Shown piece by piece: positions 5,199-60,409 of a stretch of 64,000 nucleotides of DNA. Source of the stretch: Spirochaetota bacterium (GTDB taxonomy: Bacteria; Spirochaetota; JAGLSM01; JAKPMW01); contig JAITCI010000020.1 of assembly GCA_031283155.1 (NCBI GenBank), positions 27,414 to 91,413 on the forward strand, written 5' to 3'. Made by a program: the position numbers and the translations under genes. The stretch's first letter is position 1. Each line of letters starts with the position of its first letter. The notes under the pieces are model-generated. The model ran no database searches and was not told the origin of the DNA. It worked only from the letters and a program-made list of their open reading frames with translations.

Positions 5199-5267
5199 AG
5201 AACCCTCCGGTGTTCCAAAACGATTATACTATTATATTATAGTATAGCTTAGATTAGGAGGTGTGCA

Positions 5268-43077: not shown

Positions 43078-44730
43078 TTACTCTGTTCGCTGCCGCAAAA
43101 ATTCAAAATACAGAATCGATTGATCGTCTTCCAGTTGGGCACCTGCCGCATGAGCCGAAACCGTTTTAACAAGCCCTGAAACAAAGTCGTCGGGATGGAG
43201 ATCGCTATGCGTTTGCACATACTCCGAGAGGCGCGCTTCGCCGTAGGGCTCATCGTTTTCATTGAGTACGTCAATCAGACCATTCGTAAAAAGCAGAACC
43301 CGGTCGCCGGGTTCAAGCTGAACGGTTTGCGATTCGTATTTCCCTTCCTCGCGCACACCGATATACACTCCGGAGGCATGCAATTTTTCAATCGTTTCGC
43401 TCTGCGCGCGCCAAAGGTACGCAGCCCGATGCCCGGCGCTTGCGTAATGAAATAATCCCGTATCGAGCTCAATAACGCCGTAATAGGCCGTAAGAAAATG
43501 CCCGAGATCCGCGACCAGGGTATGGAGTTCATCGTTTACACGGCGGCAGGTTTCGGCGGGCGTGATCCCGTGGTGCCCGCTCGCGCGGAACAGGGTTTTG
43601 GCGAGGGTATTTACGAGAGCCGCAAAAACGCCGTGTACGGAAAGATCGGCCACGAGAAAGCTATAGGTGCTTCTTCCGATGCGCGCCGTATCGTAAAAAC
43701 TTCCTCCAATTGTGCCAATCGGAATATAACGCGCGGCGATAGAGAGTTCGGGAACCATCCCGAGACTCTCCTCGTCGGGGAACATGCTCTTTTGAACGCG
43801 CCGCGCCATTTCAACCTCGGCAAGAAACTGCTGGCTGATGGTGGTCAGTTCCTCATTTGCGCTGTGCAGTTCCGCAGTGCGCTGATCGACCATAGACTGC
43901 AGGTTTTTTGAATATCCCTGTATCTCTTCTTTTTGCGACGCGATCTCATCAAAGCTCCTCTTGAGTTCATGGCTCATATTACTGATGGCCTGCGCAAGAA
44001 ATCCGATCTCGTCCCTGGCGTCCAGCCTGATCTCAACCTCAAAATTGCCGCGCGCAATCTCCTCCGCGCTTGTCGTCAGGATACGCAGCGGCTGCACCAC
44101 AAGCCGCATCAGGAACCATATAAGGGTTCCCGCAATAAACGCGATCAGGATGAGCATGGTAAAAACAAAGGCGAGGCGGGTGTTGGCGACGGTTCGGTAC
44201 GCCAATTCCAGGGAGAAGATCATCTCCACCGATCCCAGCACCTTGCGTTCCCCGCCGCCCTCATATACGCAGGGTTCTGTCTTTCGGAGCCAATACTTTT
44301 CCGGAACCGGAATCTCGCCGGGTTCGCGCCCATTTAAGTGCAGCTTTTTCCCGGGCGTACCTTCCGCCCCGGGATTGCCGCGCACTATAACCGAAAGCAC
44401 GTCGGCCTCCAGTCCCTCGGACTTCTGGAGCATCTCGGCGGTTTCATGGATGATAAAATAAGTAAATCGTTCAATATTGTAGGCGCTGATCGCGGCAACA
44501 AACTCGATGAGTTTATCGGCGCTGCGCTCCTTTTCGGCTATCAGCGAACGCTCCTGCATCCCAATCAGCATCCAGCCGCCAATCGTCATGATCACAATAA
44601 GAAGCAGGATGATGGCGAGTGAAAATTTGATGGATAAACGAAAACGCACTTCCGAATTTGATTTTGCGCCTGTTTTCCGGCTGTGTTCGGCAGTGCCTGA
44701 ATTTTTTGCAGATTTGACGCTTTCGGACAT
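43078..44730 (-). CDS. HAMP-domain PP2C-type (SpoIIE/RsbU-like) serine phosphatase
   Basis: TM segments, HAMP, then PP2C motifs (GGSFYD ... LVADLSVHG ... LFTNGLIDVLNE). Confidence 0.8.
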   Translation of the reverse strand: MSESVKSAKNSGTAEHSRKTGAKSNSEVRFRLSIKFSLAIILLLIVIMTIGGWMLIGMQERSLIAEKERSADKLIEFVAAISAYNIERFTYFIIHETAEMLQKSEGLEADVLSVIVRGNPGAEGTPGKKLHLNGREPGEIPVPEKYWLRKTEPCVYEGGGERKVLGSVEMIFSLELAYRTVANTRLAFVFTMLILIAFIAGTLIWFLMRLVVQPLRILTTSAEEIARGNFEVEIRLDARDEIGFLAQAISNMSHELKRSFDEIASQKEEIQGYSKNLQSMVDQRTAELHSANEELTTISQQFLAEVEMARRVQKSMFPDEESLGMVPELSIAARYIPIGTIGGSFYDTARIGRSTYSFLVADLSVHGVFAALVNTLAKTLFRASGHHGITPAETCRRVNDELHTLVADLGHFLTAYYGVIELDTGLFHYASAGHRAAYLWRAQSETIEKLHASGVYIGVREEGKYESQTVQLEPGDRVLLFTNGLIDVLNENDEPYGEARLSEYVQTHSDLHPDDFVSGLVKTVSAHAAGAQLEDDQSILYFEFLRQRTE

Positions 44731-44741
44731 ACTGTCCCCTT

Positions 44742-45785
44742 TTATTTTCCCCAGGTATTGATGACGGCAATACGCTCATTTTTGATCATCTCTTCAACCC
44801 TTCCGAGTTCATCAAGAAGCGCCGCCGGAAACAACGATTTTGTATACTCCATGCCGGTGAGGCTAATCCCTCCGTTCCTGTAATCAAAACGGTAGCTTTC
44901 CCCGCGCAAGCCGCCCGCAATGCGGTACTCCAGCAGCCTGACCAGAGCAACATCAAGGCGCTTGAGCATACTGGTGAGTACATACCCGGGCGCCATGTGA
45001 TCCTGATCGGAGTCCACCCCAATAACGTAATGCCCGCTCTCCTGCGCCGCGCGGATGATACCATTTCCGCTGGCACCCGCTGCGGCGTAGATGATATCCA
45101 TATCCTCGGCATACATTTCCATGGCCATCTCGTACCCGCGCTTGGGATCGCTGAACCCCGAAAAATCCGGAAGGAGCGAAATATGGCGCGTGATGATCGT
45201 ACAGACCGGATCGCCGTATTGTACACCCTGCCGGAAGCCTGCCTCAAAATCCCTGACCGAGGCGACGTCTACCCCGCCCAGAAAACCAATCCGCTTGGTT
45301 TTGGAAAAACGCGCCGCCAGAAAACCCGCGGCGAAGGATCCCTCATTTTGCGCAAATTCGGCGGTCGCCAGATTGGGCAGGTGATACCCCTCGTCATAAT
45401 CGAAAAGGATAAAAACAATATCGGGGTATTTGCGCGCAAGGGCGTAAATGATCGGTCCCATCAGAAACCCTTCGCCGGCGAGAATCACATTGCATTTATC
45501 CTTTTGAATCATGTCCTCAAAAAGTGCCTCAAGGGTTTTTTCATCGTCATCCGGGGGTATACGCAGCACCGCGTCTATGTCAAAGCGCGTGTATGCCTGA
45601 ATGAGTCCGTTATAAAGCATATCGTTGAAGGATTGATCACCCAAACCGTGCGAACTCAGGGCAAGCCCCGCGCGTACAGCCTTTGCCGGAGTTTCCAGAC
45701 TGGCTATGGTACCGGAACGCTCGGGAAGGCAGGATCCCAAAAAACAGGCAACCCCAAGCAAGATAAAAATACAGTACCGCTTCAT
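44742..45785 (-). CDS. BMP-family (Med/PnrA/TmpC-like) ABC-transporter substrate-binding lipoprotein
   Basis: Lipobox (FLGSC) and the BMP-family pattern. GGAGGA RBS before the ATG at 45785. Confidence 0.8.
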   Translation of the reverse strand: MKRYCIFILLGVACFLGSCLPERSGTIASLETPAKAVRAGLALSSHGLGDQSFNDMLYNGLIQAYTRFDIDAVLRIPPDDDEKTLEALFEDMIQKDKCNVILAGEGFLMGPIIYALARKYPDIVFILFDYDEGYHLPNLATAEFAQNEGSFAAGFLAARFSKTKRIGFLGGVDVASVRDFEAGFRQGVQYGDPVCTIITRHISLLPDFSGFSDPKRGYEMAMEMYAEDMDIIYAAAGASGNGIIRAAQESGHYVIGVDSDQDHMAPGYVLTSMLKRLDVALVRLLEYRIAGGLRGESYRFDYRNGGISLTGMEYTKSLFPAALLDELGRVEEMIKNERIAVINTWGK

Positions 45786-45856
45786 CCTGCATCCTCCGTA
45801 TCCAGCAAACCCAGTGTACCATGTTTGGGAACCGGAAGGAAGAAAAAATACCATTT

Positions 45857-48364
45857 CTAGCCAATAAAGCGTTTTTTCATAAAATGCTCAAGCATGGCCG
45901 GCAGCATGATCACCGAGGTGAGCCAAAGTATCATCATGCCGAGAACCGCAAGCCCGCCGATGGAACGCAAACCCGGATGATTCGCGATCAACATACCCGC
46001 ATACCCCAGCATGGTGGTAAAGGAGCAGAGGAAGAGCGGGACTATCAGCTCGGCCACGGTTTTTTTGGTCTCGCCTTTGTATTCCTTCCAGCGCGTAAAC
46101 ATATGGACGCCGTTGTCCACACCCATACCGAGGAGCGCGGGGATCATGATCACGTTAAACAGGTTCAGATGCATACCCAAAAGCACCATGATTCCGAAAA
46201 TAAACACGAGTCCGCTGATGAGCGGAATCATCACAAACAGCGATTCACGCATAACCCGGAGTTCCAGCCAGACAAGAACGAACACACCCAGGAAGGTTAA
46301 AGCAACAAGCCACACAGCCTCGCCCTTGATGATTTTGACTATCTCGGCGTATACGGGGGTTTCGCCCACCGGCCCCACAACACCGCCAATATCGAGCTTA
46401 TCACGCGCCGCCTGCGATTCCGGGATGAGTCTGTATAATTCCTCGGTGAAACGGATCGCGTTTCCGGAATTTTTCCTTTCCGCTGCGGGTATAACGCCGG
46501 CCAGATACTTATTTTCGCCGTCTTTGGAAAGAAATGAACTGGCGAGCAAATCGGGAAGTTCCTGAATTTTCGGCGGAGATGGATTTTCGCCCATATCCCA
46601 GTCGCGCATTTCGCTTATCCATTTTTTCCGGTCGGGGTTTTCGATTCGCTCAATCCAGGTGCCTTCGCGCATCTCCTCCTGGATATCCCGCAAAAGCAGA
46701 AGCCGCTCCTTCCAGATCAGACTGCCCGGATCCGGGGCATAATCGCGGACGCTGCGCGTCACGCCAACCATGGTGGTATTGGTGGTATACCGGACTACTT
46801 CGCGCCCCTCAACCATATTTGTAACGGGGCTGCTGAGATAGGTTTTCGCGCGCATACGGTTCTCAAAGATATCCAGCGCTTTATCGAGACTTAACACATC
46901 GTCGGCCATAAAAACCGCCCCGGGCGATACGCCGCCGGAGTAGATCTTGCCGCGCGCCGCGCGCGCTTCCGCAAGACCGGGATCGGCGCTTTTGTCAAAC
47001 TGCAGGGTACTGAAACCTGCGTCAAATTTCATGCCTGCGCCGGCAAGTACAACAAAGAACACCATCAACACGAGCGCAATGATCGCGGCGCGCCGCGAAA
47101 GCACAAAGGCTTTATCATTGCGATGATCTTTGGCCCGCAAAAACCCAAAACGAGCAGCAACGACCAGCATCGGCGGCATACACACAAGCATGGAGGCAAG
47201 GATGCTGATGATGACAATGACGGAGATGATCCCGAATTCCGAGAAACCGCGAAAACCCGATATCATGAGAATCGCGAGCGCGAATGCGGTGGTGAAACCC
47301 GAAACAAGCACCGACGGCCCCGTGTTGCGGTAGGCCGCCACAAGCGCCTCCGCGAAGGGCATTTCGCACATCTCCTGCTCCACGCGCTTAACCAGGTGGA
47401 TAGCGTAATCTATACCCATACCCGTGAGAATCACTATGAGAAAAGACGTAATAAGGTTGAGACTCTTAACCGTGATCGGAATAAACGCAAAACCCCATAT
47501 CATACCCACCACAAGCGGAATGAGCACCACCAAAGCCGTTCGCAGGGAGCGAAAACCAATAACTGTCACCAGCAGGATCAGACAGCCGGAAACTATGGTC
47601 GCGATAGCGAGATCCTTGTTGATAAGGTTGAATTCTTCTATTTTGTTGCAATGCGACCCCGCGACGTCCGCCCATACCGAATACTCTTTCCCAATATCCG
47701 CCGCAATATTGGTGAGGCTTGTATACAGATCGGACACCTGCTGGAATTCATCGATCCCATTGGTTGTGCGGATGATGATCCCCAGGTTTTTACCATCAGC
47801 GGAAAAATGATAGGGGGTAAGCGAGGCGAAGTGGCGGACATTTACTTCTATGCCCTCTTCATTGGAGTTGTGTACACTCTCTTCATCGTCCGCTATATCC
47901 CCTGTGCCGCCCGCAAGCAGATTTACGCCGGCGGGAGAAAGTTCCGATTTCCAGCCGAGTATCTTGTCGTAGATCTGCTCCAGATAATCATTCGGAACCA
48001 GCAGATACCGATACTTTCTGAAAAATTCCACTGGCCACTCGTATTCCGCGGTATAGATGCCGGGAAGCGGCTGGATACGCCGCGCCGCCTCGGTAGCAGC
48101 CTGCACCAGGGTATTGCTCTCGTCGGAGTTTATAATCATGGTAAAATACCCGCCGTCTCCGGTGATCGCGGAAAGGGTGCGCGTATTTTTGGAGGCGCGG
48201 CTGTCTGTGGGCAGGAGGCGTACCAGATTCGGATCGATGAATATCTTCTGCACCTCTATAACGGCGGGTATGGTGACGAGCGCGATGATCGCGAGCAGCC
48301 GGTACGGGTGCCGCAATGAATACTGACAAACAGCCAGCATGATTTTTTTCAGAAAAGTATACAT
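45857..48364 (-). CDS. MMPL/RND-superfamily exporter (paralog 1)
   Basis: Two TM bundles separated by large periplasmic loops, with the MMPL signature. 835 aa. Confidence 0.8.
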   Translation of the reverse strand: MYTFLKKIMLAVCQYSLRHPYRLLAIIALVTIPAVIEVQKIFIDPNLVRLLPTDSRASKNTRTLSAITGDGGYFTMIINSDESNTLVQAATEAARRIQPLPGIYTAEYEWPVEFFRKYRYLLVPNDYLEQIYDKILGWKSELSPAGVNLLAGGTGDIADDEESVHNSNEEGIEVNVRHFASLTPYHFSADGKNLGIIIRTTNGIDEFQQVSDLYTSLTNIAADIGKEYSVWADVAGSHCNKIEEFNLINKDLAIATIVSGCLILLVTVIGFRSLRTALVVLIPLVVGMIWGFAFIPITVKSLNLITSFLIVILTGMGIDYAIHLVKRVEQEMCEMPFAEALVAAYRNTGPSVLVSGFTTAFALAILMISGFRGFSEFGIISVIVIISILASMLVCMPPMLVVAARFGFLRAKDHRNDKAFVLSRRAAIIALVLMVFFVVLAGAGMKFDAGFSTLQFDKSADPGLAEARAARGKIYSGGVSPGAVFMADDVLSLDKALDIFENRMRAKTYLSSPVTNMVEGREVVRYTTNTTMVGVTRSVRDYAPDPGSLIWKERLLLLRDIQEEMREGTWIERIENPDRKKWISEMRDWDMGENPSPPKIQELPDLLASSFLSKDGENKYLAGVIPAAERKNSGNAIRFTEELYRLIPESQAARDKLDIGGVVGPVGETPVYAEIVKIIKGEAVWLVALTFLGVFVLVWLELRVMRESLFVMIPLISGLVFIFGIMVLLGMHLNLFNVIMIPALLGMGVDNGVHMFTRWKEYKGETKKTVAELIVPLFLCSFTTMLGYAGMLIANHPGLRSIGGLAVLGMMILWLTSVIMLPAMLEHFMKKRFIG

Positions 48365-48424
48365 TTCGTTTTACCGTTCTTTCCGCAGCAGTATTCTCAG
48401 GAGATTCCTTAATTGAATTACACC

Positions 48425-51007
48425 CTATTTTCGCGCGGCGGCTTCCTCTTCATCCAGAATCTTTACTTCCGCAGCGCTCAAAAATTTTCTTCGCATAAAA
48501 TGTTCCAGCATCGCGGGCAGAATGATGACCGATGTCAGCCAGAGCATCATCATACCCAAAACGGCCAGCGTCCCGATGGAACGCAGCCCCGGATGCGCTG
48601 CGATGATCATGCCCGCATACCCCAGCATGGTGGTAAATGTACACAGAAAGAGCGGGATAAAAAGTTCACTCGCCGCTTTCATCGTATGCCCGTGATACTC
48701 TTTCCAGCGCGTAAACATATGGACGCCGTTATCGACGCCCATGCCCAGAAGCGCGGGAATCATAATGACGTTAAACAGATTCAGATTCATACTGAGAAGC
48801 ACCATAGCGCCAAAGGTAAATACGAGGCCGCTGATAAGCGGAATCATAACAAAAAGGGATTCGCGCACGGTCTTTAACTCCAGCCAAACCAGAATAAAAA
48901 TTCCGATAAAGGTTAAACTCACAACCCACCATATCTCGCCCTTGACGATCCTGACTATCTCGGCAAACACCGGAACCTCGCCCACCGGACCCCACACCCC
49001 GCCGATACCCAGGCGCTCCCGCTCCGCCTGCGATTCGGGAACAAGCTGATATATCTCGTCGGTAAACCGGAGGGAGTGCGCGGCGACCTTGCGGTCAACG
49101 GAGGGAAAGACCGCCACGAGATATCTGGCCGCGCCGTCCTTGGAGAGAAGCGGGGTGCATATAATTTCGGGAAGCTCGCTGAAGGCAGGCGGCAGGGGAT
49201 TCAGTTCCCCGTTCCAGTCGCGCATCTCGCGTATCCAGCGTTTCCGGTCAGGATTTTCGATCCTGTCGATCCAGACGCCTTCGCGCATTTCCTCCTGGAC
49301 GTCCCTAAGAAGAGCGCGGCGCTCGTGCCAGAGTTTGCCATTCGGATCAGGGGTATAATCGCGCAGGCTGCGCGCCCGCTCGATGGTTGTGGTATTGGTT
49401 GTATAGCTTACCACGGGCGCGCCATGAACCATATTTGTTACAGGATCTGTAAGCCAGGTATTTTCGTGGATGCGCTTGTCAAATATTTCCAGGAGGCGAT
49501 CCAGGTTTTCGGTATCGTCCGCCAGAAATATCGCGCCGGGAGAGAAGGTACTCGAATAGACCTTATTGTGCGCCATCCGTGAATCGCGCGCATTCCTCGC
49601 CGCGTCTGTTTCATGCAGCCCGGCAATCGCGCTGCGATCAAATTCCAGATTTCTGAAGCTCGCGTCAAACTGCAGTCCGCTTGCGCCTATAATCAGGCAA
49701 ATGCCCATCAAACCAAGAGCCATCAGCGTCCAGCGGCGCGAAAGGACTATGGCCTTCTCGCTGCGGTGATCGCGCGCGCGGATAAATCCGAAACGATGCG
49801 CGACGACCAGCATCGGCGGCATACACACAACCATGGAAGCCAAAATGCACGCGAGAACCATCGCGCTGATGATCCCAAATTCCGAGAAACCGCGAAAACT
49901 CGAGACCGACAGGATAGAGAGCGCAAACGCTGTAGTGAAACCCGAAACAAGCACCGATGGCCCCGTATTGCGGTAGGCCGACGCGAGCGCCTCCGCGAAG
50001 GGCTTCTCAAACATCTCCTGCTCCACGCGCTTAACCAGGTGGATCGCGTAATCTATGCCCATGCCGGTGAGGATTATGATAAGAAAAGCGGTTATAAGGT
50101 TCAGGCTCCGGATGGTACTCGGGATAAAAGCGAACCCCCAGGCCATCCCCACGATGAGCGGTATGAGTACAACAAGCGCCGTGCGGATAGAGCGAAAACC
50201 CAGCGCTGTCACCAGAAGAATCAGACAGCCGGAGATCAGGGTCGCGTGTCCAATATCGTCATTGATAAGATTGAACTCGTCGGTCTTGTTGCGATGGGAA
50301 CCCGCGATACCTATCTCCACCGGAAATTCTTTTGCAATCCCCGCCGCCACATTCGTAAGCCCTTTGTAGAGATCGACGACCTCCTGAAATTCGTCAATGC
50401 CATTGGATGTACGGATTATGATCCCCAGGTTTTTGCCGTCGGCGGAGAAATGGTAGGGCGAAAGCGAGGCGAATTGGCGGATATCCCCCTCGATGGCCTC
50501 CTCGCCGGGGCTTTGCACATTAACTTCGGTATCGTCCGGATCCGCCGTATCGCCTCCAAGCAGGTTCACGCCTGCCGGAGAGAGTTCCGATTTCCAGCCG
50601 AGTATCTTGTCGTAGATCTGCTCCAGATAGTCATTCGGAATCAGATGGTAGCGGTACTGCCTGAAAAATTCCACCGGCCACTCATACTCTACTGTATAAA
50701 CGCCCTTCAGCGGCCGGATCTGCCGCGCCGCCTCGTCCGCCGCCTGCACCAGGGTATTGCTCTCATCGGAGGTGAGTATCATGGTAAAATACCCGCCGTC
50801 CCCGGTAATAGCGGAAAAAGTGCGGGTATTTTTGGAGGCGCGGCTGTTTGTGGGCAGAAGGCGAACCAGGTTCGGGTCGATAAAGATCTTCTGCACTTCA
50901 AGCACGGCGGGGATGGTAATAAGCGCGATGACAGCCAGTATCCGGTACGGGCATCTCAAGGAATACTGACAGATAGCCAGCATGATTTTTTTGAGAAAAC
51001 TATACAT
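48425..51007 (-). CDS. MMPL/RND-superfamily exporter (paralog 2)
   Basis: 860 aa. Collinear with and highly similar to paralog 1 throughout (e.g. an identical MY[TS]FLKKIML N-terminus). Confidence 0.8.
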   Translation of the reverse strand: MYSFLKKIMLAICQYSLRCPYRILAVIALITIPAVLEVQKIFIDPNLVRLLPTNSRASKNTRTFSAITGDGGYFTMILTSDESNTLVQAADEAARQIRPLKGVYTVEYEWPVEFFRQYRYHLIPNDYLEQIYDKILGWKSELSPAGVNLLGGDTADPDDTEVNVQSPGEEAIEGDIRQFASLSPYHFSADGKNLGIIIRTSNGIDEFQEVVDLYKGLTNVAAGIAKEFPVEIGIAGSHRNKTDEFNLINDDIGHATLISGCLILLVTALGFRSIRTALVVLIPLIVGMAWGFAFIPSTIRSLNLITAFLIIILTGMGIDYAIHLVKRVEQEMFEKPFAEALASAYRNTGPSVLVSGFTTAFALSILSVSSFRGFSEFGIISAMVLACILASMVVCMPPMLVVAHRFGFIRARDHRSEKAIVLSRRWTLMALGLMGICLIIGASGLQFDASFRNLEFDRSAIAGLHETDAARNARDSRMAHNKVYSSTFSPGAIFLADDTENLDRLLEIFDKRIHENTWLTDPVTNMVHGAPVVSYTTNTTTIERARSLRDYTPDPNGKLWHERRALLRDVQEEMREGVWIDRIENPDRKRWIREMRDWNGELNPLPPAFSELPEIICTPLLSKDGAARYLVAVFPSVDRKVAAHSLRFTDEIYQLVPESQAERERLGIGGVWGPVGEVPVFAEIVRIVKGEIWWVVSLTFIGIFILVWLELKTVRESLFVMIPLISGLVFTFGAMVLLSMNLNLFNVIMIPALLGMGVDNGVHMFTRWKEYHGHTMKAASELFIPLFLCTFTTMLGYAGMIIAAHPGLRSIGTLAVLGMMMLWLTSVIILPAMLEHFMRRKFLSAAEVKILDEEEAAARK

Positions 51008-51100
51008 TTCCTAAAGATACAAAATTTACGACGTGCGGGGCGCGCGCGGTACGATACTTACGGCGCTTTTTTGACAGAATATGCGACCGGCGTGCTTTTT

Positions 51101-51724
51101 TCAGTCCGAGATGCGGTACTGCGCGACCGTCTGCTCGACCTGCCGTATCGCCGCCGCCACGCCCTTGGCGCTGACGATCTTTTTGAACTGTCCCTGATAA
51201 TTCCGGATGGTACTTGTCCCGTCCGTGAAATAATTGATGATCACCCAGCGCCCGTCTTTTTGGGTCAGAGTGTAGTCGAGCGCGATCCGCTCCGTGCCGC
51301 CGTTCTTTTTGCTGTATATGGCTGTCGTGCTGACCGTCACATTCGCGCCTGCGGCTTTTTCCCCGCCGTACTCAAAATTATCGGCGTTGTACCGCCCCAT
51401 TTTTTTGACCGAAGAGAGCAGGAGCAGCTCCTCAAATGCCTTTTTGAATGCGGCGCGCTGGGCGGGCGTCGTATCCGCCGGGAAAACCGTCAATACCGCG
51501 TCCGACATGGCTGAAAAATCCGTCGCCGGCTCGATAATGGCTCTGAGCTTTTTTTCGGTGGCGTCGTCCAGCTTGTTGCCCGCATTGGCGTTCAGAACCT
51601 CTTTAACCTTTTCGTTTGAGTCGCGAATCGCATCAAGCGGCGCGCCGGCAAAAAGCACCCCCGCAGAGAGCATGAGTCCAAGAGCCAAAATACCTACAGC
51701 CTTAGTTGAGAGTAACTTTTTCAT
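51101..51724 (-). CDS. MlaC/Ttg2D-like periplasmic lipid-binding protein
   Basis: Signal peptide. ~200 aa, with an MlaC-family pattern. Confidence 0.6.
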   Translation of the reverse strand: MKKLLSTKAVGILALGLMLSAGVLFAGAPLDAIRDSNEKVKEVLNANAGNKLDDATEKKLRAIIEPATDFSAMSDAVLTVFPADTTPAQRAAFKKAFEELLLLSSVKKMGRYNADNFEYGGEKAAGANVTVSTTAIYSKKNGGTERIALDYTLTQKDGRWVIINYFTDGTSTIRNYQGQFKKIVSAKGVAAAIRQVEQTVAQYRISD

Positions 51725-53045
51725 TTTTCATCCACTCCTCGTATTTTTTGATGTCCCCAAGAACAAGCGCCAGACGAGCAAGCGCTATCTGTGTCCTGAG
51801 TTCGCACTGCACCTCTTCAGCTTCGGTTTCGTACTGCATTCTGAAACCGCTAATCACGGTATTCGGCGTGTCCAGACCGAGATCGTAGTTCTCGAGGGCG
51901 AGACGCGCGAATGTTTTTGCAGCGGAGAGCGAATCGCGGATATTCGCAAGATTGGTATACTCCTGCCGCAGACCGGATACCGCCTTTTCCAGGTCAAGCC
52001 GTACCCTTTCTTCCGCATACTTCAGCCCATGCCGCAGCGCATCGAGATCGCTTTTCGCGAGTTCCGCCTCCGTGTCCACCCTCCAGAAGTCCAAACGCCA
52101 CCTTAGCCCTATAAAAGCACCGACACCCTTTGAGTTATAATCGTCACTACTTGGGCGGTTACTTGCGTAGCGCATCCGCAAACCGCCGCCGATGAACAGA
52201 TCGGGCAGGGCGTTTGCTTTTTCGACGGACAGCTTCGCGTCTGCGGCCTGAATCGCCGAGCGCATCTTGCGCAGTTCCGGGCTGCGCTCCGTTACCCGCT
52301 GAAGCAGGCGGGTGATATTGGGCGTCGCATCGTCAAATTCGGGGAGCGGGCTTTCGGCGGCGCGTAACTCGCGCCCCTCGTCCCGCCCCATAGCGATGTT
52401 GAGGGCGCGCATCAGGTTGGTATATTCCCCGGATGTACTGGTATACATTTTATGAACCTGCCAGGAGCGCGCGCGCAGTTCCAGGCGATCCATCTCCGTG
52501 ATGGTACCGTCCTCTTTTTCGATCTCCTCGTCGGCCTTTTCGACAAGCGAATCAAATTTGCCTTTCATATCCTCGGCCACAGCCAGCCCTCTTTGGGCAG
52601 CCGCAAAACCGCGATACAGGCAGATCAGCTCAAAAACGGCCTTATCGCGGGTATCCGCAAAATTATCCTGTTCGTACGCCAGCCCATGCCGCGCGAGTTC
52701 CTCGGCGCTGCCGATCTTGCCAAAGGTTAAAATGGGCTGCACAAAGGAGAGTTCGTTTTGGGTAAACACACCCCAGCCGCTGAGTTCAAAGGGATCGGAG
52801 CCGGGGAGGACGCCTCCGGTAGAGGTGAGATCAAATTTCGTGAGATACTTAAGCTCGTTGACCTTGGTTATCTGCAGGCGCGCCTTCTCCACGCGGGCTT
52901 CCGCCGCCTTAATCCCCGGATTCTCGCGCAGCACCGTGGCGAGTACGTCGCCGAGAAGAATCAGCTCGCCCTCCGCAGCGCCAAGAAAGACCGGAAATAT
53001 AATGACCATAATAATCCGGGAAAAAATGTGTGAAAAAAGGCGCAT
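51702..53045 (-). CDS. TolC-family outer-membrane efflux protein
   Basis: Signal peptide. Two OEP-repeat-like halves. Overlaps the downstream MlaC-like gene by 23 nt. Confidence 0.75.
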   Translation of the reverse strand: MRLFSHIFSRIIMVIIFPVFLGAAEGELILLGDVLATVLRENPGIKAAEARVEKARLQITKVNELKYLTKFDLTSTGGVLPGSDPFELSGWGVFTQNELSFVQPILTFGKIGSAEELARHGLAYEQDNFADTRDKAVFELICLYRGFAAAQRGLAVAEDMKGKFDSLVEKADEEIEKEDGTITEMDRLELRARSWQVHKMYTSTSGEYTNLMRALNIAMGRDEGRELRAAESPLPEFDDATPNITRLLQRVTERSPELRKMRSAIQAADAKLSVEKANALPDLFIGGGLRMRYASNRPSSDDYNSKGVGAFIGLRWRLDFWRVDTEAELAKSDLDALRHGLKYAEERVRLDLEKAVSGLRQEYTNLANIRDSLSAAKTFARLALENYDLGLDTPNTVISGFRMQYETEAEEVQCELRTQIALARLALVLGDIKKYEEWMKNEKVTLN

Positions 53046-53124: not shown

Positions 53125-54957
53125 CTAGTCCGGCGGATTCCGCAAGTCAAGAGGCGTCCTTGACCAATTTTCAGGTTCATATACAGCAGCGATGGCATTC
53201 GTCCAGACTTCGGTATACCCGCCCTCCTGTATCAATTCCATTGTTAAGGCATGAAGAGTGGGGCGCGGCGCCGCCCATTGGGTTTGCAGCCACTGCGCGG
53301 CATAGGGATCGGGGAGCGGCCAGTTCCGCGCTGCGGTAATTGCGCGGACGTAAATAATCAGGGGATATTCGCGGTGTACCCCGCGCGCCCAGGAAAAAGC
53401 GTTTGTCAATCTGGAATGCGAAAAAAGCGCATGGGGCATGGAAAACCCCAGATACGGGATACACTCTGTAACATAAGTCAGGAGAGGCGCGAAGGGTATA
53501 AGCACAGCCTTTCCTTTCAGATCGTAGCGCGCGAGGTAATCGGTGAGTTCGTTTAGTGCGTCCGCGCGCGCCTTGTTTGTATGTATACCGCGAAGATTTG
53601 GGTGATGGAGGCTGTGTACGAGCTTCAGCCTGTTTGCCTGATCCCTGTCGGTTTGGGTAAAGGCATACGCCGCTGTAAAAACCCATGCCGGAACAAGTAT
53701 TGACCAGAAGAGCGCCCGGGCATAAACGGAAAATCTGCCAAAATAAAATGCCTGCGCATTTCCCGCGCGAAAAACAGTGCCCAGCGCAAGCGGCAAAGCA
53801 AGCCAAAGACCAAATTTGGCGTTCCACCAAACCTGATCTGAACCCAGAGGAAGGAGGAAGGCTATTCCAAACACGACAAGACAGATGTGCGCCCATCTGT
53901 TTCGCAGAAATTGCCCGGGAAGCGAAAAAAGAATAATGCCCGCGAGAAAGAGCGCAAACGCAAATATGTACAGCGGAAAAGATATAAGCTGCTTGCCATT
54001 TCCCAGTTCCTGTTCGATGAGGTACATGGGCAGATGAACGAGAAAGAAAGCCGCAATACATGGCAGCAGGCGCGCCCGCCAGTCATCGCGCCTGGACAGC
54101 AGACGCGAGAAAAGCGTATAAAAAGCGGCGAGCGCAAGAATTGTTCCCGCAACCTTCGCGGTGTCCGAGAGGAAACGTTTTGCAAGGTATGAGAATTTAT
54201 GATATGGACCCATATCGCCAAAAAGAGTAGCCTTAATTCCGTTCAGGAAAATTTCTTCCTGCCCAAGCAGAATAACTATCACCCCCGTAAACACACATCC
54301 GGCAATGAACCCCAAAAAAGACCACACGAAAGAGCGCAGCATGGCACCCGTGCCGAGATGAGACCGGATATACGCAAGGGGTATGAGAAAAAGCAGGATA
54401 CCGGCAATACTCGGTATACGCGCAAAAACAGTGAGACTCATGCACAGACCGGCAAAAAAGAAATTCTCCGCGCGTCCATTCCGGAAAGTCCGAAGCAGAA
54501 AAAATGCGGTACAGACATACAGAAACGCAGGGAAATTATTATAGTTGATAAGCTGCATGGTTGGAGTGATCGCGAGCACGGCAAGGGCAAGGCCAAAGAG
54601 GAGCGGACGCCGCGCAACAAAAAAAGGGCGCAGGCTTTTGTACGCGATCCATGCGGTAGCCCATGCTATAAAAGCGAAAAGTAACTTAAAAGAAAAAACC
54701 CCCAGCCGGCCAAAGAGCGCGTGCCAAACCCCGCCGAAGATCTCTGTGAGATATATGGAAGCAAGGGGGAACACCCCCCCATTTTCACCGGAAAGGTTAA
54801 GGGCAGGGTCAAAACTGAGGGCGTCGCGGTATTTAACAGCCCAAAATCCAAAATCGCCCATATCAAGACCCTGAAAGATCGTCAGCAGCGGGTACACCAG
54901 TATAATGATTATAAAAACCGAGTCCGGACAAAAGAAACGGCGGTGTACTCCAGACAT
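53125..54957 (-). CDS. large polytopic membrane protein, possibly a GT-C-type glycosyltransferase or polymerase
   Basis: >10 predicted TM helices across ~610 aa. Sits in a glycan-biosynthesis neighbourhood. The start was set at an internal Met (the ORF extends to 55062). Confidence 0.5.
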   Translation of the reverse strand: MSGVHRRFFCPDSVFIIIILVYPLLTIFQGLDMGDFGFWAVKYRDALSFDPALNLSGENGGVFPLASIYLTEIFGGVWHALFGRLGVFSFKLLFAFIAWATAWIAYKSLRPFFVARRPLLFGLALAVLAITPTMQLINYNNFPAFLYVCTAFFLLRTFRNGRAENFFFAGLCMSLTVFARIPSIAGILLFLIPLAYIRSHLGTGAMLRSFVWSFLGFIAGCVFTGVIVILLGQEEIFLNGIKATLFGDMGPYHKFSYLAKRFLSDTAKVAGTILALAAFYTLFSRLLSRRDDWRARLLPCIAAFFLVHLPMYLIEQELGNGKQLISFPLYIFAFALFLAGIILFSLPGQFLRNRWAHICLVVFGIAFLLPLGSDQVWWNAKFGLWLALPLALGTVFRAGNAQAFYFGRFSVYARALFWSILVPAWVFTAAYAFTQTDRDQANRLKLVHSLHHPNLRGIHTNKARADALNELTDYLARYDLKGKAVLIPFAPLLTYVTECIPYLGFSMPHALFSHSRLTNAFSWARGVHREYPLIIYVRAITAARNWPLPDPYAAQWLQTQWAAPRPTLHALTMELIQEGGYTEVWTNAIAAVYEPENWSRTPLDLRNPPD

Positions 54958-55119
54958 ATCCTGCCTCCTGCTCAAAGCCAAACCCTTCCTAAAAATACAA
55001 AAGTGTATATCCAGAGTGAAAACGATTGCCGCAGCCCGGCAAAAACGGAAGCGGAGCACCATTTTTGTAGACGCGAAAAAAAGGCCGCGTTACACTCAAA
55101 CAACAGAGAAGCGGAGTGC

Positions 55120-56919
55120 ATGATGGAGCGCAACTATACACTGATTGCGGTAATTACCGGCGCGGCGTTTTTATTCCTGTGGATTTTACCCTATCTGGTT
55201 TTGGGCGAAGACGCGCATATAACGCTCCACGACAATCTGGATTCTGAAATTATTTTTAACCAACTGGGCGCGAAATATTTTTTTGACTTAAGCGGTACGA
55301 TCCCCGAATTTATCAATCTGGATGCGCGCGCGCTCAACACCTTTTCGACGTTTCAGCTTTTGCTGTACGCATTCCTGCCGCCATTTCAGGCATATATATT
55401 AAATGAATGTATCGTCAGATTGGCAGCGTATGCGGGGATGTATTTGCTTTTGAGCCTGATTTGTACACGTCATTTCCGCGAAGAGCGCCCGCCGTCAGGC
55501 AATCCCTGGATGCTTGTGACGCTTGCCGTTTCCGTGCTTTTTGCGTGGCTTCCGTTTTACAGTGTGTATGGTTTAACGGTCGCCGGAATGCCAATGCTGG
55601 CATGGGCGTTTTATAATGTTTTTTTGCATGGCTGCGGGAGGGATCCGAAGACTGTCTCTTCCCGTAAATTAAAATTTTGCTTTTTGTGTATCGCGTTTTT
55701 TGGTTTTGGGAGCGCTCTGATCTTAAGCGGCTGGTTTATCCTTCTCATTTTGTCCGGGTTGTGCGCCTATTTCCTGTGCAAGCAGCAATTCCGCAAAAAA
55801 CAGATATATTTTTATCTGGCCGCAGCGCTCCTGCTGGCGGTGTATGCCGCGTGTAACCTAAAACTGATTATGCTCATGCTTTCGGGTTATCAATCGCACC
55901 GCGAGATTTGGGAAACTCTGGAGACAAAAAATTTCAGCGGGATGATACTCTGGTTTTTTGCTGTTTTCGGAATAGGGCGGCCGCACGCGGGTGGGCATTA
56001 TACCTTCATTGTATTGATATGCGCGGCGGCGTTTTTTTATGGATGGTTTAAGGACAAGAAAAACAAAATATGGCAATGGCTCTCATGGGTTGTATTGCTC
56101 AACGTAATTATTGCGGCGGCGAATGCGCTGCTTGCGGCCACCATCGTCGGCAAAATCATAATCGCGTCAGGCCTGGGGCGTTTTCGCGCGGCAAGGCTGT
56201 TCTTCATGATGCCGTTTACATGGTATACGGCGGGCGCTTTGGCTCTGGCGTTTATATGGGAAAAAATTGCGGGAAACGGAAACGCGGCCAGGTTAAAGCT
56301 GGCCCGGGCTGTAACAATTTGCGTATGCGCGCTGGCGTTTGTTCTTGTGTCCGCCATCCCGTGGCCGCACAGCCATGTTGCGGGGTTAACCAATTACGCG
56401 GTTATGCTGGGCGCTGCTGCCGGCGGCCCGTCGTGGAGAGAATTTTATGACGTAAACCTTTTCAAAACCATAGATGACGCAATCGGCCGCGACAAAACAA
56501 CATACCGCACAGGGTCGATTGGCCTGCCCCCCGCAATAGCGATATATAACGGATTTTACACCGTGGACGCGTTCTCGCAAAATTACAGTCTGGAATACTG
56601 GCGTACGTTTCGCGGCGTTATCGCGGGGGAACTTGCGCGCAATCCTGCCATGGACGCCAATTTTTACTGGGGGAATCAGTGCTATTTATTCGCAAGCGAA
56701 ATTTATGAACACCGCTCCTGGAATCTGGGGATGTACAATAAAAATTCCACAGCGGTGATTACAACTCTGGATTATGATATACAGGCGCTTAGAAACGTCC
56801 TCGGCTGCGAATACATTTTTTCCGCCGTACCCATCCTGACGCCGCCCGCCGAACTGGAATATGTGGATTATTTTGAAGGCGCTTATCTGGGGATTTATCT
56901 CTACAAAGTAATTATCTGA
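55120..56919 (+). CDS. large polytopic membrane protein (hypothetical, ~600 aa)
   Basis: Many TM helices and a C-terminal soluble region. The start was set at MMERNYT, because the upstream part of the ORF overlaps the divergent gene. Confidence 0.55.
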   Translation: MMERNYTLIAVITGAAFLFLWILPYLVLGEDAHITLHDNLDSEIIFNQLGAKYFFDLSGTIPEFINLDARALNTFSTFQLLLYAFLPPFQAYILNECIVRLAAYAGMYLLLSLICTRHFREERPPSGNPWMLVTLAVSVLFAWLPFYSVYGLTVAGMPMLAWAFYNVFLHGCGRDPKTVSSRKLKFCFLCIAFFGFGSALILSGWFILLILSGLCAYFLCKQQFRKKQIYFYLAAALLLAVYAACNLKLIMLMLSGYQSHREIWETLETKNFSGMILWFFAVFGIGRPHAGGHYTFIVLICAAAFFYGWFKDKKNKIWQWLSWVVLLNVIIAAANALLAATIVGKIIIASGLGRFRAARLFFMMPFTWYTAGALALAFIWEKIAGNGNAARLKLARAVTICVCALAFVLVSAIPWPHSHVAGLTNYAVMLGAAAGGPSWREFYDVNLFKTIDDAIGRDKTTYRTGSIGLPPAIAIYNGFYTVDAFSQNYSLEYWRTFRGVIAGELARNPAMDANFYWGNQCYLFASEIYEHRSWNLGMYNKNSTAVITTLDYDIQALRNVLGCEYIFSAVPILTPPAELEYVDYFEGAYLGIYLYKVII

Positions 56920-56937: not shown

Positions 56938-57564
56938 TTATTCGTAATTGTATTTATAATTGTCATAGTCATTTCTGATTTCATCCTCAGAAACGGCTTC
57001 CTTTCTTTTACAAACCATTAAGGAATCCACACCATCGAGTATTTGTATATATTTTTTTACAATATGGTAATACGGCCTGTTCCAGAAATCGTGAATGATA
57101 ATTACTGTATTTTCACTTGTTTCCAGCAGCGTCTTTAAGCAGCACGCCGCGCGAAACCGTCCGTCTATCAATACGGCGTCGGCCAGCCTTATTTCTGCGT
57201 ATTGCTCAAAAGGTTTTTGGGAGTAATTCAAAAATCTTTCCCTGTTATCCCCTTTGGCAGTTATAACCGGAGTTCCCCATTTACCGGTTTTGCCAATATC
57301 CGCATGAATCAGATGAAGCTGTCCGGATAGTTCGCTCTTTAATATGATTTCGTATTTTTGTTTCATCTTTTCTATCCAGCCTTTGTCCGATTCCACTGAA
57401 TATACTTTTCTGCCGCTATTGGTCAGCGCGGCGATTGTCGAACCGCCGGATCCGAATTCCAGATATATTTTTGCGCCGCAGATATATTTTTTGAATAATT
57501 CCCGCTCATTTTCAGTCATCGCCCACGTAAAATTTTTGTTCCGTGCCTTGCAGAATACAGACAT
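56938..57564 (-). CDS. class I SAM-dependent methyltransferase
   Basis: Motif I LEFGSGGST. Noticeably low-GC relative to its neighbours. Confidence 0.6.
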   Translation of the reverse strand: MSVFCKARNKNFTWAMTENERELFKKYICGAKIYLEFGSGGSTIAALTNSGRKVYSVESDKGWIEKMKQKYEIILKSELSGQLHLIHADIGKTGKWGTPVITAKGDNRERFLNYSQKPFEQYAEIRLADAVLIDGRFRAACCLKTLLETSENTVIIIHDFWNRPYYHIVKKYIQILDGVDSLMVCKRKEAVSEDEIRNDYDNYKYNYE

Positions 57565-60324: not shown

Positions 60325-60409
60325 TGCCGTCTACGCGGGGCGCTTACCTCTTCTGAATCGTTGCCCCGCGTCGAGCCGACATCCTGTCTACGCGGGGCGC
60401 TTACCTCCT
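60325..60409. repeat. two copies of a ~23-bp direct repeat (TGTCTACGCGGGGCGCTTACCTC) separated by 34 bp, with an inverted partial copy between them
   Basis: Seen directly in the sequence. The second copy overlaps the last codons and stop of the CDP-alcohol transferase gene. Confidence 0.7.

Follow-up and report, generated by a model that had tools for sequence, protein, structure and literature searches.

The cluster described here lies within a 64-kb stretch of DNA, the window, that was analysed as a whole. In the direction of reading it encodes a TolC-family outer-membrane factor (OEP), a periplasmic protein with an MlaC fold and two paralogous RND-superfamily transporters of the MMPL type, MMPL_A and MMPL_B, followed by a Bmp lipoprotein (Table 1). 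Re-checking the open reading frames returned exactly the coordinates of a first-pass annotation of this DNA, including the overlap between the OEP and MlaC frames and the spacings of 93 nt between MlaC and MMPL_A and 60 nt between MMPL_A and MMPL_B. Its assignments of the four proteins were right, with Pfam matches at 3.4e-33 (OEP), 3.8e-28 (MlaC), 5.6e-34 (MMPL_A) and 1.3e-33 (MMPL_B), as was that of the Bmp protein. Intrinsic-terminator-like sites were absent from the intergenic gaps, with scan counts not above those of shuffles, so the arrangement is consistent with a single OEP-MlaC-MMPL-MMPL operon, without demonstrating one. The overlap suggests that translation of the first two genes may be coupled.

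Table 1. Features of the cluster and its surroundings (window coordinates)
Feature	Position	Strand	Remarks
Multi-pass membrane protein, 645 aa	53125-55062	minus	~10-12 TM + C-terminal soluble domain
TolC-family outer-membrane factor (OEP)	51702-53045	minus	447 aa
OEP stop/MlaC start overlap	51702-51724	minus	23 nt
MlaC-fold periplasmic protein	51101-51724	minus	207 aa
MMPL_A, HpnN-like RND-superfamily transporter	48425-51007	minus	860 aa
MMPL_B, tandem paralog of MMPL_A	45857-48364	minus	835 aa
Bmp/PnrA-family lipoprotein	44742-45854	minus	Pfam Bmp 1.3e-47
HAMP-PP2C (SpoIIE) membrane phosphatase	43078-44730	minus	Pfam SpoIIE 3.5e-41, HAMP 9e-13
CDP-alcohol phosphotransferase fusion (DIPP-synthase/PI-phosphate-synthase-like)	60401-61705	minus	Pfam CDP-OH_P_transf

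The OEP protein carries a Sec signal peptide and lacks a lipobox cysteine. Its NCBIfam matches to TolC and NodT fall far under the cutoffs, and a sequence search of the PDB gave no match at E<=0.01. The AF2 model (pLDDT 81) predicts the full TolC fold, with long helices of 66 residues, and Foldseek aligned it with TolC, OprN, ST50 and CmeC at TM 0.67-0.80. OEPs linked to MlaC genes resemble one another (E 1e-43 to 1e-58) and belong to a small OMF subfamily marked by a conserved C-terminal tail, LGDIKKYEEWMKNEKVTLN, which an exhaustive profile search recovered from about 40 representative clusters.

The second protein of the cluster likewise has a signal peptide and lacks a lipobox. Its NCBIfam matches, HpnM at 60.9 bits (9.5e-17) and MlaC at 38.7 bits, are both under cutoff. 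The first-pass annotation had let its proposal stand or fall with the MlaC fold of this protein, and the fold holds: the AF2 model has a pLDDT of 87.6, and every one of the top 12 Foldseek matches in the PDB is an MlaC/Ttg2D structure (TM 0.64-0.77 target-normalised, 0.60-0.69 query-normalised). Against the window protein, the MlaC proteins of other OEP-linked pairs reach 108-127 bits, whereas that of a canonical MlaEFDCA operon, picked up in the same profile search, is clearly more distant, at 71 bits. By these similarities the OEP-linked MlaC proteins, like their OEP partners, constitute a distinct subfamily.

Both transporters are related to HpnN. The top NCBIfam match of MMPL_A is HpnN (TIGR03480, 2.3e-57, under cutoff), its closest PDB matches are the HpnN structures 5khn and 6wu0, and its hydropathy profile fits 12 TM segments and two large periplasmic loops, a topology that MMPL_B shares. 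BstA (NF045600) is the second or third NCBIfam match for the two proteins, at 134-147 bits against a cutoff of 1400, and AcrB can be aligned with them in the TM region only (ACR_tran, 29-35 bits). Aligned along their whole length, the two are collinear, at 71% identity and 84% positives, in line with their earlier description as highly similar paralogs. The N-terminal strings quoted for them are indeed common to both, and the long identical nucleotide stretches reported between the genes amount to ten perfect matches of 20 nt or more, up to 47 nt in length. One 27-nt string, CCAGCGCGTAAACATATGGACGCCGTT, occurs exactly twice, at 46088 and 48704, where shuffles lead one to expect 0.

Over the codon alignment the two genes share 72.7% nucleotide identity (dN 0.20, dS 1.11), and divergence is greatest at residues ~400-650, the second periplasmic domain. 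Like MMPL_A, MMPL_B retains the Asp motifs of TM4 and TM10, its GIDYAIH aligning with GVDFAIQ of HpnN. Relatives whose MlaC is no more than 64% identical have a single MMPL gene, closer to MMPL_A than to MMPL_B, and the duplication is otherwise found only in L021, the nearest relative. The tandem pair can thus no longer be counted as part of the conserved machine. It is instead young and lineage-specific, MMPL_A being, by sequence comparison, the ortholog of the relatives' single gene and MMPL_B a faster-diverging copy; the two probably form a heterodimer or serve two related cargoes.

Co-conservation of the trio was the other point on which the first-pass annotation had rested its case, and the trio does recur. 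The order OEP-MlaC-MMPL is found in about ten related Spirochaetota loci (the window, L001, with L021, L002, L006, L009, L010, L013 and L016-L018; MlaC identity 51-81%), in a distant Leptospirales-like contig, L019, at 29/36/39% identity, and, rearranged within 4.5 kb, in an Acidobacteriota MAG, L012. All compared loci derive from MAGs or metagenomes, none from a cultured organism. The same 23-nt overlap of the OEP and MlaC frames occurs in L002, L006, L013, L021, L004 and L019, with every Spirochaetota locus conserving it, and an overlap of 20 nt in five Methylomirabilota-like loci (L022, L023, L025, L026 and L027), so that overlapping frames are kept across phyla, down to 28-36% identity. 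In several lineages, including Methylomirabilota-like genomes, the OEP-MlaC pair stands without an adjacent MMPL/RND gene. The overlapping pair is the invariant core of the cluster, and its inner-membrane partner may be variable or different across lineages.

The pair's independence, and a view limited to 64 kb, would also suit a reading in which the genes are functionally unrelated neighbours: the OEP would work with efflux pumps whose genes lie elsewhere, the MlaC-like protein would belong to an Mla ABC system at another locus, and the MMPLs would act alone. This is very improbable and already disfavoured by synteny, given the persistence of the frame overlap over such distances, the recurrence of the Acidobacteriota trio in another gene order, and the membership of the OEP and MlaC partners each in a subfamily of its own.

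The surrounding genes bear on what the cluster might carry. Upstream of OEP, at a distance of 79 nt, lies the gene for the 645-aa membrane protein, which occupies the same place in L010, L013, L016, L018 and L021. Neither Pfam nor NCBIfam matches the window copy, and a profile search against the PDB found nothing; paralogs in L002 match PMT_2 weakly (7e-05 and 5e-03), and the protein may be a GT-C-type glycosyltransferase. A CDP-alcohol phosphotransferase gene directly follows the MMPL gene in L002, L006, L009 and L013, joined in some relatives by a radical-SAM gene. In the window it is found 7 kb from the cluster, where it matches NCBIfam NF041135 at 9e-29 (under cutoff) and where tblastn places the L002 and L006 genes (60404-61702, 44-51% identity). 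The Methylomirabilota-like loci have, ahead of OEP-MlaC, a gene resembling that for serine palmitoyltransferase (579 bits) and an SDR gene. On the other side of the cluster, Bmp orthologs follow in L002, L006 and L009, and within the Treponema-like clade Bmp is a conserved neighbour on the downstream side; its lipobox, FLGSC, follows an internal Met, so the true start is probably M24. The HAMP-PP2C gene is syntenic in the same three loci, again as a conserved downstream neighbour, and its product is a possible regulator.

Genes for an MFP/HlyD adaptor, for MlaD/E/F (the Mla ABC/MCE complex) and for MlaA are all absent from the 64-kb window, although any of these could sit elsewhere in the genome, and the cluster as it stands thus fits neither the classical tripartite efflux pump nor the Mla system. 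Like AcrAB-TolC, MexAB-OprM and CusCFBA, it co-encodes an inner-membrane RND protein with a TolC-fold OMF. Unlike those pumps, it has no adaptor in the window, its RND proteins are of the HpnN/MMPL type (~850 aa) rather than HAE1 or HME, and its periplasmic protein has the fold of a lipid carrier.

An efflux or secretion function nonetheless deserves to be weighed. On that reading, the substrate caught by the RND and MlaC-like proteins would be some small hydrophobic or amphiphilic compound, such as a xenobiotic, a solvent, a terpene-like molecule, a fatty acid or a secreted biosurfactant. It would leave the cell through the TolC-like duct, with the MlaC-like protein acting as a periplasmic substrate chaperone in the manner of CusF in CusCFBA. 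The order cusC-cusF-(cusB)-cusA, with the chaperone gene directly after the OMF gene, resembles the OMF, periplasmic protein and RND succession seen here, and the predicted OEP structure is that of an orthodox, full-length duct. Toluene tolerance, moreover, gave members of the MlaC/Ttg2 family their original name (PDB titles), and AmeABCD of Castellaniella defragrans, whose HAE3-type RND protein is genetically linked to one outer-membrane partner and two periplasmic ones, neither of the latter a classical adaptor, confers monoterpene tolerance (PMC6394551). That said, the AmeABCD partners, a DUF1302 outer-membrane protein and the two periplasmic proteins, have folds unrelated to those of the cluster, and its monoterpene substrates belong to a catabolic island (PMC6394551). 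Here, lipid or glycoconjugate synthesis genes (CDP-alcohol transferase; Spt-like) adjoin the cluster in two unrelated lineages, in neighbourhoods that hold no catabolic or resistance genes. The ligands of all characterised MlaC-fold proteins are diacyl or tetra-acyl lipids (PDB entries). The lack of an adaptor gene in the window also weighs against expulsion. Every known TolC-dependent pump relies on such a protein for opening and sealing its duct, and we regard an efflux function as unlikely, though not negligible.

Among lipid transporters, the closest counterpart is HpnN/HpnM/HpnS, the proposed inner-to-outer-membrane route for hopanoids in Proteobacteria (PMC12324291). There, too, an HpnN-type RND protein is encoded beside an MlaC-family periplasmic protein, and shuttle-type export is proposed to proceed without a membrane-fusion adaptor. 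The outer-membrane partner differs, being HpnS, an MlaA-like lipoprotein, in the hopanoid route and a TolC-family trimeric channel in the cluster, where the RND gene is also duplicated in tandem. BstABC, the sterol transport system of Methylococcus (NF045600; PMC11713862), similarly combines an HpnN-like BstA with a periplasmic lipid-binding and an outer-membrane-associated protein. As far as is known, neither BstB nor BstC shares a fold with MlaC or TolC. Could the cluster be the hopanoid export system in spirochete form, or a sterol transport ortholog? The best NCBIfam matches (HpnN at 2e-57 and BstA for the RND proteins, HpnM for the MlaC-like one) and the PDB matches to HpnN point that way, and the Acidobacteriota and Methylomirabilota, which also carry the module, include hopanoid producers (PMC12324291). 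However, the scores lie far under the curated equivalog cutoffs (195 vs 752, 121 vs 1100, 61 vs 160), the window contains no shc, hpn or MlaA-like hpnS gene, and Spirochaetota are reported to lack squalene-hopene cyclase and hopanoid synthesis (PMC12324291), so that such orthology is scarcely credible.

The Mla pathway (MlaFEDB-MlaC-MlaA/OmpC-F) resembles the cluster in pairing a soluble MlaC-fold carrier with a trimeric beta-barrel partner in the outer membrane, but it works with an ABC/MCE complex and MlaA, where the window has an RND protein instead. A TolC homolog also occurs among Mla-type lipid-trafficking genes in the mlaEFD-tolC-tamB clusters of Negativicutes, which have an ABC/MCE engine with a long MlaD and neither MlaC nor RND (PMC10665443).

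The reading we favour, with a probability of about 0.5, is an envelope-spanning lipid-trafficking route built from RND protein, MlaC-fold carrier and TolC-family protein; a lipid-trafficking role, as first suggested, thus remains the best account of the locus. One or two HpnN-like RND proteins, driven by the proton-motive force, would draw an amphiphilic lipid out of the inner membrane's outer leaflet. The soluble carrier would accept it and take it through the periplasm, and the dedicated TolC-family protein, presumably co-translated with the carrier, would provide the site of docking and of insertion or release at the outer membrane, standing where MlaA-OmpC/F stands in Mla and HpnS is proposed to stand for hopanoids. 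Contact between the TolC-family protein and the carrier is something we infer. Some points count against this route. The TolC lumen is hydrophilic and its 12-stranded barrel has no known lateral gate, so that insertion of a membrane lipid through it is hard to picture; and HpnN itself is thought to need no outer-membrane channel (PMC6394551).

Movement could also run the other way, with the TolC-like and MlaC-like proteins removing excess or misplaced lipid from the outer membrane and the RND protein returning it to the inner membrane. The MlaC fold predicted for the window protein is in keeping with this, as E. coli MlaC is generally assigned a retrograde role, in which the lipid is donated by an outer-membrane beta-barrel complex (PMC10719372; PMC11289387). 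Outward movement, however, is what RND proton antiport drives, and the linked biosynthetic genes fit delivery of newly made lipid. No characterised RND-superfamily lipid transporter (HpnN, MmpL3 and, as proposed, BstA) is known to do other than export from the inner membrane, and because all characterised HpnN/MmpL relatives do so, inner-to-outer export is the more likely direction and retrograde homeostasis rather improbable. As for what an export route would carry in this spirochete clade, the gene neighbourhood points to a phospho-polyol or a glycolipid as the probable cargo. It would be synthesised by the products of the linked genes, namely those for the CDP-alcohol phosphotransferase, the radical-SAM protein of some relatives, the GT-C-like protein, and a MOP flippase and TupA-like ATP-grasp cluster.

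The architecture had at first been taken to be without precedent. That holds in part: the pairing of an RND (MMPL) protein with an MlaC-like one is known, having been proposed for hopanoids as HpnN/HpnM (NCBIfam/TIGRFAM; PMC12324291), so only the TolC-family partner is new and, it appears, undescribed. Most likely, the cluster is a not yet described version of the machinery that carries lipids between inner and outer membrane in bacteria.

The first-pass annotation had described a TolC-like gene, an MlaC-like gene, two MMPL genes and a lipoprotein gene at this locus, and exactly this content and order were recovered, with all genes on the minus strand. The gene for the TolC-family outer-membrane protein (OEP) comes first; the MlaC-like gene starts 23 nt inside its 3' end and is followed, after gaps of 93 nt and 60 nt respectively, by the two tandem HpnN-like transporter genes, MMPL_A and MMPL_B (see table). 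The same annotation had treated these genes as one operon. There is no terminator-like hairpin in the intergenic gaps, in keeping with that view, but a promoter and terminator scan of the cluster gave counts not above those of shuffled sequences and was uninformative on operon boundaries, so a single operon is plausible, not proven. The Bmp/PnrA-type lipoprotein gene is an orphan, with no ABC transporter genes nearby; together with the HAMP-PP2C (SpoIIE) phosphatase gene it is kept directly 3' of the transporter genes in the Treponema-like clade.

Features of the cluster, its upstream neighbours and the related loci with a serine palmitoyltransferase-like (Spt-like) gene
Feature	Sequence	Coordinates	Strand	Remarks
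OEP, TolC-like	window	51702-53045	-	447 aa; Pfam OEP 3.4e-33
MlaC-like protein	window	51101-51724	-	207 aa; Pfam MlaC 3.8e-28
MMPL_A	window	48425-51007	-	860 aa; Pfam MMPL 5.6e-34
MMPL_B	window	45857-48364	-	835 aa; Pfam MMPL 1.3e-33
Bmp-family lipoprotein	window	44742-45854	-	Pfam Bmp 1.3e-47
HAMP-PP2C (SpoIIE) membrane phosphatase	window	43078-44730	-	
U645, conserved multi-pass membrane protein	window	53125-55062	-	645 aa; directly upstream of OEP
DUF6044 membrane protein	window	55120-56919	+	6.6e-110; divergent, beside U645
208-aa ORF	window	56938-57564		beside transferase
TupA-like ATP-grasp gene	window	57752-58594		beside transferase
MOP/MatE-type flippase	window	58599-60062		beside transferase
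CDP-alcohol phosphotransferase fusion protein	window	60401-61705	-	DIPP-synthase / PI-phosphate-synthase-like, below cutoffs
Spt-like/SDR/OEP-MlaC region	L022	4655-7660		
Spt-like/SDR/OEP-MlaC region	L025	4332-8636		
Spt-like/SDR/OEP-MlaC region	L026	4253-8618		

The assignment of the second gene to the MlaC type hinged on its fold, which is present in the AlphaFold2 model (pLDDT 87.6). The best 12 PDB matches of the model are all MlaC or Ttg2D proteins (TM about 0.64-0.77 target-normalised, 0.60-0.69 query-normalised), and the next are generic NTF2-like folds at E 1e-3 or weaker. The model conforms to the MlaC fold, in which an NTF2-like beta-sheet and a helical lid form a lipid pocket, and the protein carries the PF05494 signature (98.8 bits against a cutoff of 26) and a signal peptide without a lipobox. 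Its best NCBIfam match is HpnM (TIGR03481), the MlaC-like protein of hopanoid clusters, at 60.9 bits against a cutoff of 160.1; the equivalog model for E. coli MlaC gives 38.7 bits (cutoff 195).

The upstream protein likewise matches its Pfam family (OEP; two stretches, 115.5 bits with the cutoff at 22), and its AlphaFold2 model (pLDDT 81) is a complete TolC protomer, with four beta-strands (residues 68-79, 91-106, 282-294 and 309-317) and two 66-residue helices (110-175 and 323-388). Foldseek aligned this model with TolC, ST50, OprN, CmeC and TOprJ at TM 0.67-0.80, so that the protein has, as a modelled protomer, the fold of an outer membrane factor. It falls outside the curated TolC (TIGR01844, 48.5 against 225 bits) and NodT (TIGR01845, 44.6 against 210 bits) families, lacks an N-terminal lipobox cysteine, and gave no match in a PDB sequence search at E<=0.01.

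Both transporters are matched in two stretches by PF03176 (118 bits for MMPL_A and 117 for MMPL_B, cutoff 20.5). Hydropathy predicts the RND topology of 12 TM segments, with loops of about 210 aa between TM1 and TM2 and of about 240 aa between TM7 and TM8, and the motifs GIDYAIH in TM4, which aligns with the TM4 aspartate of HpnN, and GVDNGVH in TM10 are kept in both copies. With 12 predicted membrane spans, two periplasmic loops, an internal duplication and acidic residues in TM4 and TM10, the two proteins can be placed in the MMPL/RND superfamily. HpnN is their best match among curated families and solved structures (TIGR03480, 2e-57; PDB 5khn and 6wu0). HAE3 and the sterol transporter BstA come next, and every one of these family scores is far short of its equivalog cutoff; for HpnN itself the scores are 190-195 against 751.85 (TIGR03480) and 121-124 against 1100 (NF052374). 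They are not HAE1- or HME-type RND proteins, which have porter and docking domains and a length of about 1000-1050 aa: at 835 and 860 aa they match ACR_tran over profile positions 282-499 only (29-35 bits), and the HAE1 NCBIfam models give 17-27 bits against cutoffs of about 940-1850.

The two copies had been called collinear and highly similar, and they do align end to end at 71% identity; a 27-mer quoted in support occurs exactly twice, against none expected in shuffles. Recent gene conversion between the copies was considered and rejected: third-position identity is only 53% overall with dS about 1.1, and the segments that remain alike are those with high amino-acid conservation, which makes such an event unnecessary as an explanation. 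Divergence (dN 0.20, dS 1.11) peaks in the second periplasmic domain, where amino-acid identity falls to 44-56% over residues of about 400-650; by these values each copy has the age and the constraint that a functional gene would show. In relatives with one MMPL gene, that gene resembles copy A a little more (63-66%) than copy B (59-63%). The nearest relative, L021 (81% MlaC identity), has two copies, an ortholog of A at 84% and a partial ortholog of B at 79%, and in neighbour-joining trees the duplication falls later than the branching-off of the L002 and L006 lineages. The duplication is a lineage-specific elaboration that lies outside the conserved machine. A seemingly split OEP gene in L021 is not a pseudogene; the interruption is a scaffold gap of Ns.

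Chance adjacency of the three genes had been raised as the alternative to co-conservation, and the trio does recur. Treponema-like loci were recovered by exact-protein look-ups, two collection scans and tblastn, and all ten (the window locus L001, L021, L002, L006, L009, L010, L013, L016, L017 and L018; 51-81% MlaC identity) carry OEP, MlaC and MMPL genes in identical order. A 42-kb contig with a Leptospirales-like context (L019) carries the trio in this order too, at only 29%, 36% and 39% identity, and its OEP/MlaC overlap is also 23 nt. On an Acidobacteriota MAG contig (L012) the trio lies within 4.5 kb in a rearranged form, with MlaC forward, MMPL reverse and OEP forward. L004/L011, labelled an uncultured Leptospirales MAG and close to L019, keeps the OEP-MlaC pair without an adjacent MMPL gene, which was apparently lost or relocated in L004. 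The flanks tRNA_edit, Lnt, ligase and patatin are common to both, and an MMPL gene follows MlaC only in L019 (8597-11325, compared with 10594-10839 in L004/L011). That the genes are merely functionally unrelated neighbours is, with this recurrence in hand, very improbable, even though the RND gene is not always adjacent.

The pair extends further than the trio. A profile search returned more than 60 further clusters of MlaC-like proteins of 190-220 aa; because canonical Mla operon proteins were mixed in (a 197-aa group, for example L024), only matches above about 230 bits were counted as the subfamily. In all five loci examined from these matches (L022, labelled a Methylomirabilia MAG, and L023, L025, L026 and L027) the OEP gene overlaps the MlaC-like gene by 20 nt, and no MMPL gene was found near the pair. 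The lower-scoring L024 is an ordinary MlaE-MlaF-MlaD-MlaC-MlaA operon and so marks the limit of the subfamily; scored against the window protein, OEP-linked MlaC proteins reach 108-127 bits and the canonical one 71. On this comparison the OEP-MlaC pair is the conserved core. All loci compared are MAGs or metagenomes, the window itself coming from a metagenome-assembled Spirochaetota bacterium whose OEP and MlaC proteins match NCBI MAG entries on a 93-kb contig exactly. Single-sequence word-index searches gave 18 MlaC-like and 10 OEP homologues, and a metagenome scan gave seven loci, mostly close relatives, of which L019 was the informative one. The collection scans worked from narrow peptide patterns: a narrower MlaC alignment used on a genome collection found only four loci because its patterns were so specific, and absence from cultured spirochetes cannot be concluded.

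The OEP proteins linked to MlaC resemble one another (E 1e-43 to 1e-58) and share a C-terminal tail, ...LGD..(L/K)Y..W.....V.L, encoded in part by the stretch that overlaps the MlaC start. The tail site spans window positions 51702-51760 and the C-termini of OEP homologues P0165-P0208; in Spirochaetota its last codons, read in another frame, begin the MlaC-like gene (MKK). HMMER was run exhaustively against 1.84 billion representative proteins and gave 4,665 OEP relatives, only 182 of them at E<=1e-30. Roughly the top 40 matches reach the end of the profile and carry the tail, and weaker ones stop about 15-20 residues earlier. With the tail limited to these best matches and so few relatives at high significance, the TolC-like partner forms a small, distinct and phylogenetically scattered subfamily.

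The cluster was also compared with known systems. Among the ORFs of 100 aa or more in the 64-kb window, none showed a membrane-fusion adaptor (HlyD/AcrA/MFP), and the syntenic loci L002, L006 and L019 showed no HlyD/MFP domain either; without an adaptor in the window or an HAE1-type RND protein, the cluster is unlike a classical tripartite efflux pump. The same set of window ORFs contains no MlaD/E/F, ABC_tran, MlaA, Lpt, or hopanoid or sterol synthesis genes. Having neither the ABC/MCE complex nor MlaA in the window, the cluster differs from the Mla pathway and from the true MlaEFDCA operon of L024. Retrograde, Mla-like transport, which the carrier fold would allow, is considered improbable.

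The closest described arrangement is an HpnN-type RND protein with the MlaC-like HpnM and the MlaA-like HpnS, recently put forward as a route for hopanoids (PMC12324291). Transport of hopanoids or sterols by an orthologous system would account for the best family matches of carrier and transporters, but all HpnN and HpnM equivalog scores are below cutoff, no shc or hpn genes were found in the 64-kb window, and squalene-hopene cyclase is reported absent from Spirochaetota (PMC12324291). For Spirochaetota a hopanoid system was set aside on these scores and that reported absence, and we regard orthologous transport of this kind as the least probable explanation. An SDR/epimerase gene at 18740-19723 (+) has hopanoid-associated HpnA as its best NCBIfam match (133 bits against a cutoff of 368) and is of one general family with the SDR found ahead of OEP in Methylomirabilota-like loci. 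With 32 kb between this gene and the cluster, the link is probably a coincidence.

The first-pass annotation had presented the coupling of MMPL, MlaC and TolC-like proteins as an undescribed architecture. Since the HpnN/HpnM pairing is already annotated and has been proposed, with HpnS, for hopanoids (PMC12324291), this was too broad for MMPL plus MlaC. The TolC-family component is another matter: full-text literature searches turned up no description of such a third component, or of an outer membrane factor subfamily with a conserved MlaC-fold partner, the nearest hint being an unexplained tolC homolog adjoining mlaEFD in Negativicutes (PMC10665443). We place the cluster with RND plus periplasmic-carrier lipid trafficking, its three folds forming a combination not found in the literature searched.

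There is some indication from neighbouring genes of what might be carried. In L022, L025 and L026 the OEP-MlaC pair is preceded by an Spt-like aminotransferase (its best match, at 579 bits with the cutoff at 640, is serine palmitoyltransferase NF047600; BioF/Kbl reaches 417) and by an SDR/epimerase gene overlapping the start of OEP. In L023 the SDR/epimerase gene alone stands ahead of the pair; the L027 contig ends within the upstream gene. This arrangement hints that the module serves a sphingolipid-like pathway in Methylomirabilota-like bacteria. A corresponding link in the window was rejected, since its aminotransferase (8274-9437) is a PatB C-S lyase and not Spt, which confines the Spt linkage to the Methylomirabilota-like loci.

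Among the spirochetes, L002 and L006 have a radical-SAM gene and then a gene for a CDP-alcohol phosphotransferase fusion protein after the single-copy MMPL gene, and L009 and L013 have the transferase gene alone in that place. The radical-SAM gene (13315-14277 in L002, 5774-6730 in L006) is MoaA/SPASM-like without a specific family, and tblastn found no homologue in the window. The window does hold an ortholog of the transferase, displaced 7 kb upstream, which is a possible source of the cargo headgroup. Closer to the cluster lies U645, the 5' neighbour of the OEP gene. The window copy has no Pfam or NCBIfam match and a profile search against the PDB was empty; its L002 paralogs give weak PMT_2/GT-C matches, and a GT-C glycosyltransferase is one possibility. 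As the long U645 and DUF6044 ORFs overlap at their 5' ends, the true starts of both are probably internal Met codons.

Elsewhere in the window, several long ORFs have no Pfam match at E<=1e-3: 27944-30769 (-, 941 aa), 15863-17494 (+, 543 aa), 3996-5252 (+, 418 aa) and 1052-2236 (-, 394 aa). Positions 1-2000 have a GC content of 0.46 compared with about 0.55 in the rest of the window and include a TaqI_C-like specificity-domain ORF (42-740); this window edge may hold part of a restriction-modification gene, or mobile DNA.

Taken as a unit, the cluster is best read as encoding a three-step lipid-trafficking route, a reading to which we give a probability of about 0.5 and for which we infer direction, cargo and contacts. 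One or both HpnN-like RND proteins, driven by the proton-motive force, would take a lipid from the inner membrane, the MlaC-fold carrier would shuttle it across the periplasm, and the dedicated TolC-family protein would serve as the outer-membrane station. The conserved frame overlap can be argued to imply stoichiometric co-production, and hence physical partnership, of OEP and carrier; the basis for contacts of the carrier with the OEP trimer and the RND periplasmic domains is this 20-23-nt overlap and synteny. Because the RND neighbour is recurrent but not obligatory, the inner-membrane engine may, we would argue, be encoded elsewhere or exchanged. An endogenous lipid cargo is argued for by the neighbouring biosynthetic genes, namely the CDP-alcohol phosphotransferase, radical-SAM and GT-C-like genes of spirochetes and the Spt-like and SDR genes of Methylomirabilota-like bacteria. 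Those genes weigh against the main rival, in which a hydrophobic molecule would be expelled or secreted without an adaptor, the MlaC-like protein acting as a chaperone in the manner of CusF. This rival has a precedent in the HAE3 system AmeABCD (PMC6394551), and we consider it unlikely, if somewhat less so than retrograde transport. Were it correct, the requirement of TolC ducts for a membrane-fusion protein would have to be revised.

How lipids other than LPS (phospholipids, glycolipids, sphingolipids, hopanoids) are delivered to the diderm outer membrane is largely open, most sharply so outside Proteobacteria, and three well-understood folds in one cluster offer a concrete, genetically compact and testable candidate. 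It poses the questions of whether an MlaC-type carrier docks on a TolC-type protein, whether an RND pump can replace the Mla ABC engine, and which lipid is carried. The recurrence of the module in Spirochaetota, Acidobacteriota and Methylomirabilota-like genomes, beside different lipid-biosynthesis genes, suggests a general, overlooked solution beyond one genome's curiosity. More tentatively, the OEP proteins may constitute an unrecognised TolC-like subfamily, marked by its C-terminal tail and by a frame overlapping the downstream gene, whose obligate partner is an MlaC-fold carrier instead of a membrane-fusion adaptor. Such a protein would be a lipid port of the outer membrane, joined in different lineages to different inner-membrane engines and cargoes: in Spirochaetota to HpnN-like RND pumps and genes for phospho- or glycolipids, in Methylomirabilota-like bacteria to a sphingolipid-like pathway of the serine-palmitoyltransferase type. 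If this is true, TolC-family proteins would gain a role in outer-membrane lipid biogenesis, and the delivery of non-LPS surface lipids to the spirochete outer membrane would have a candidate explanation.
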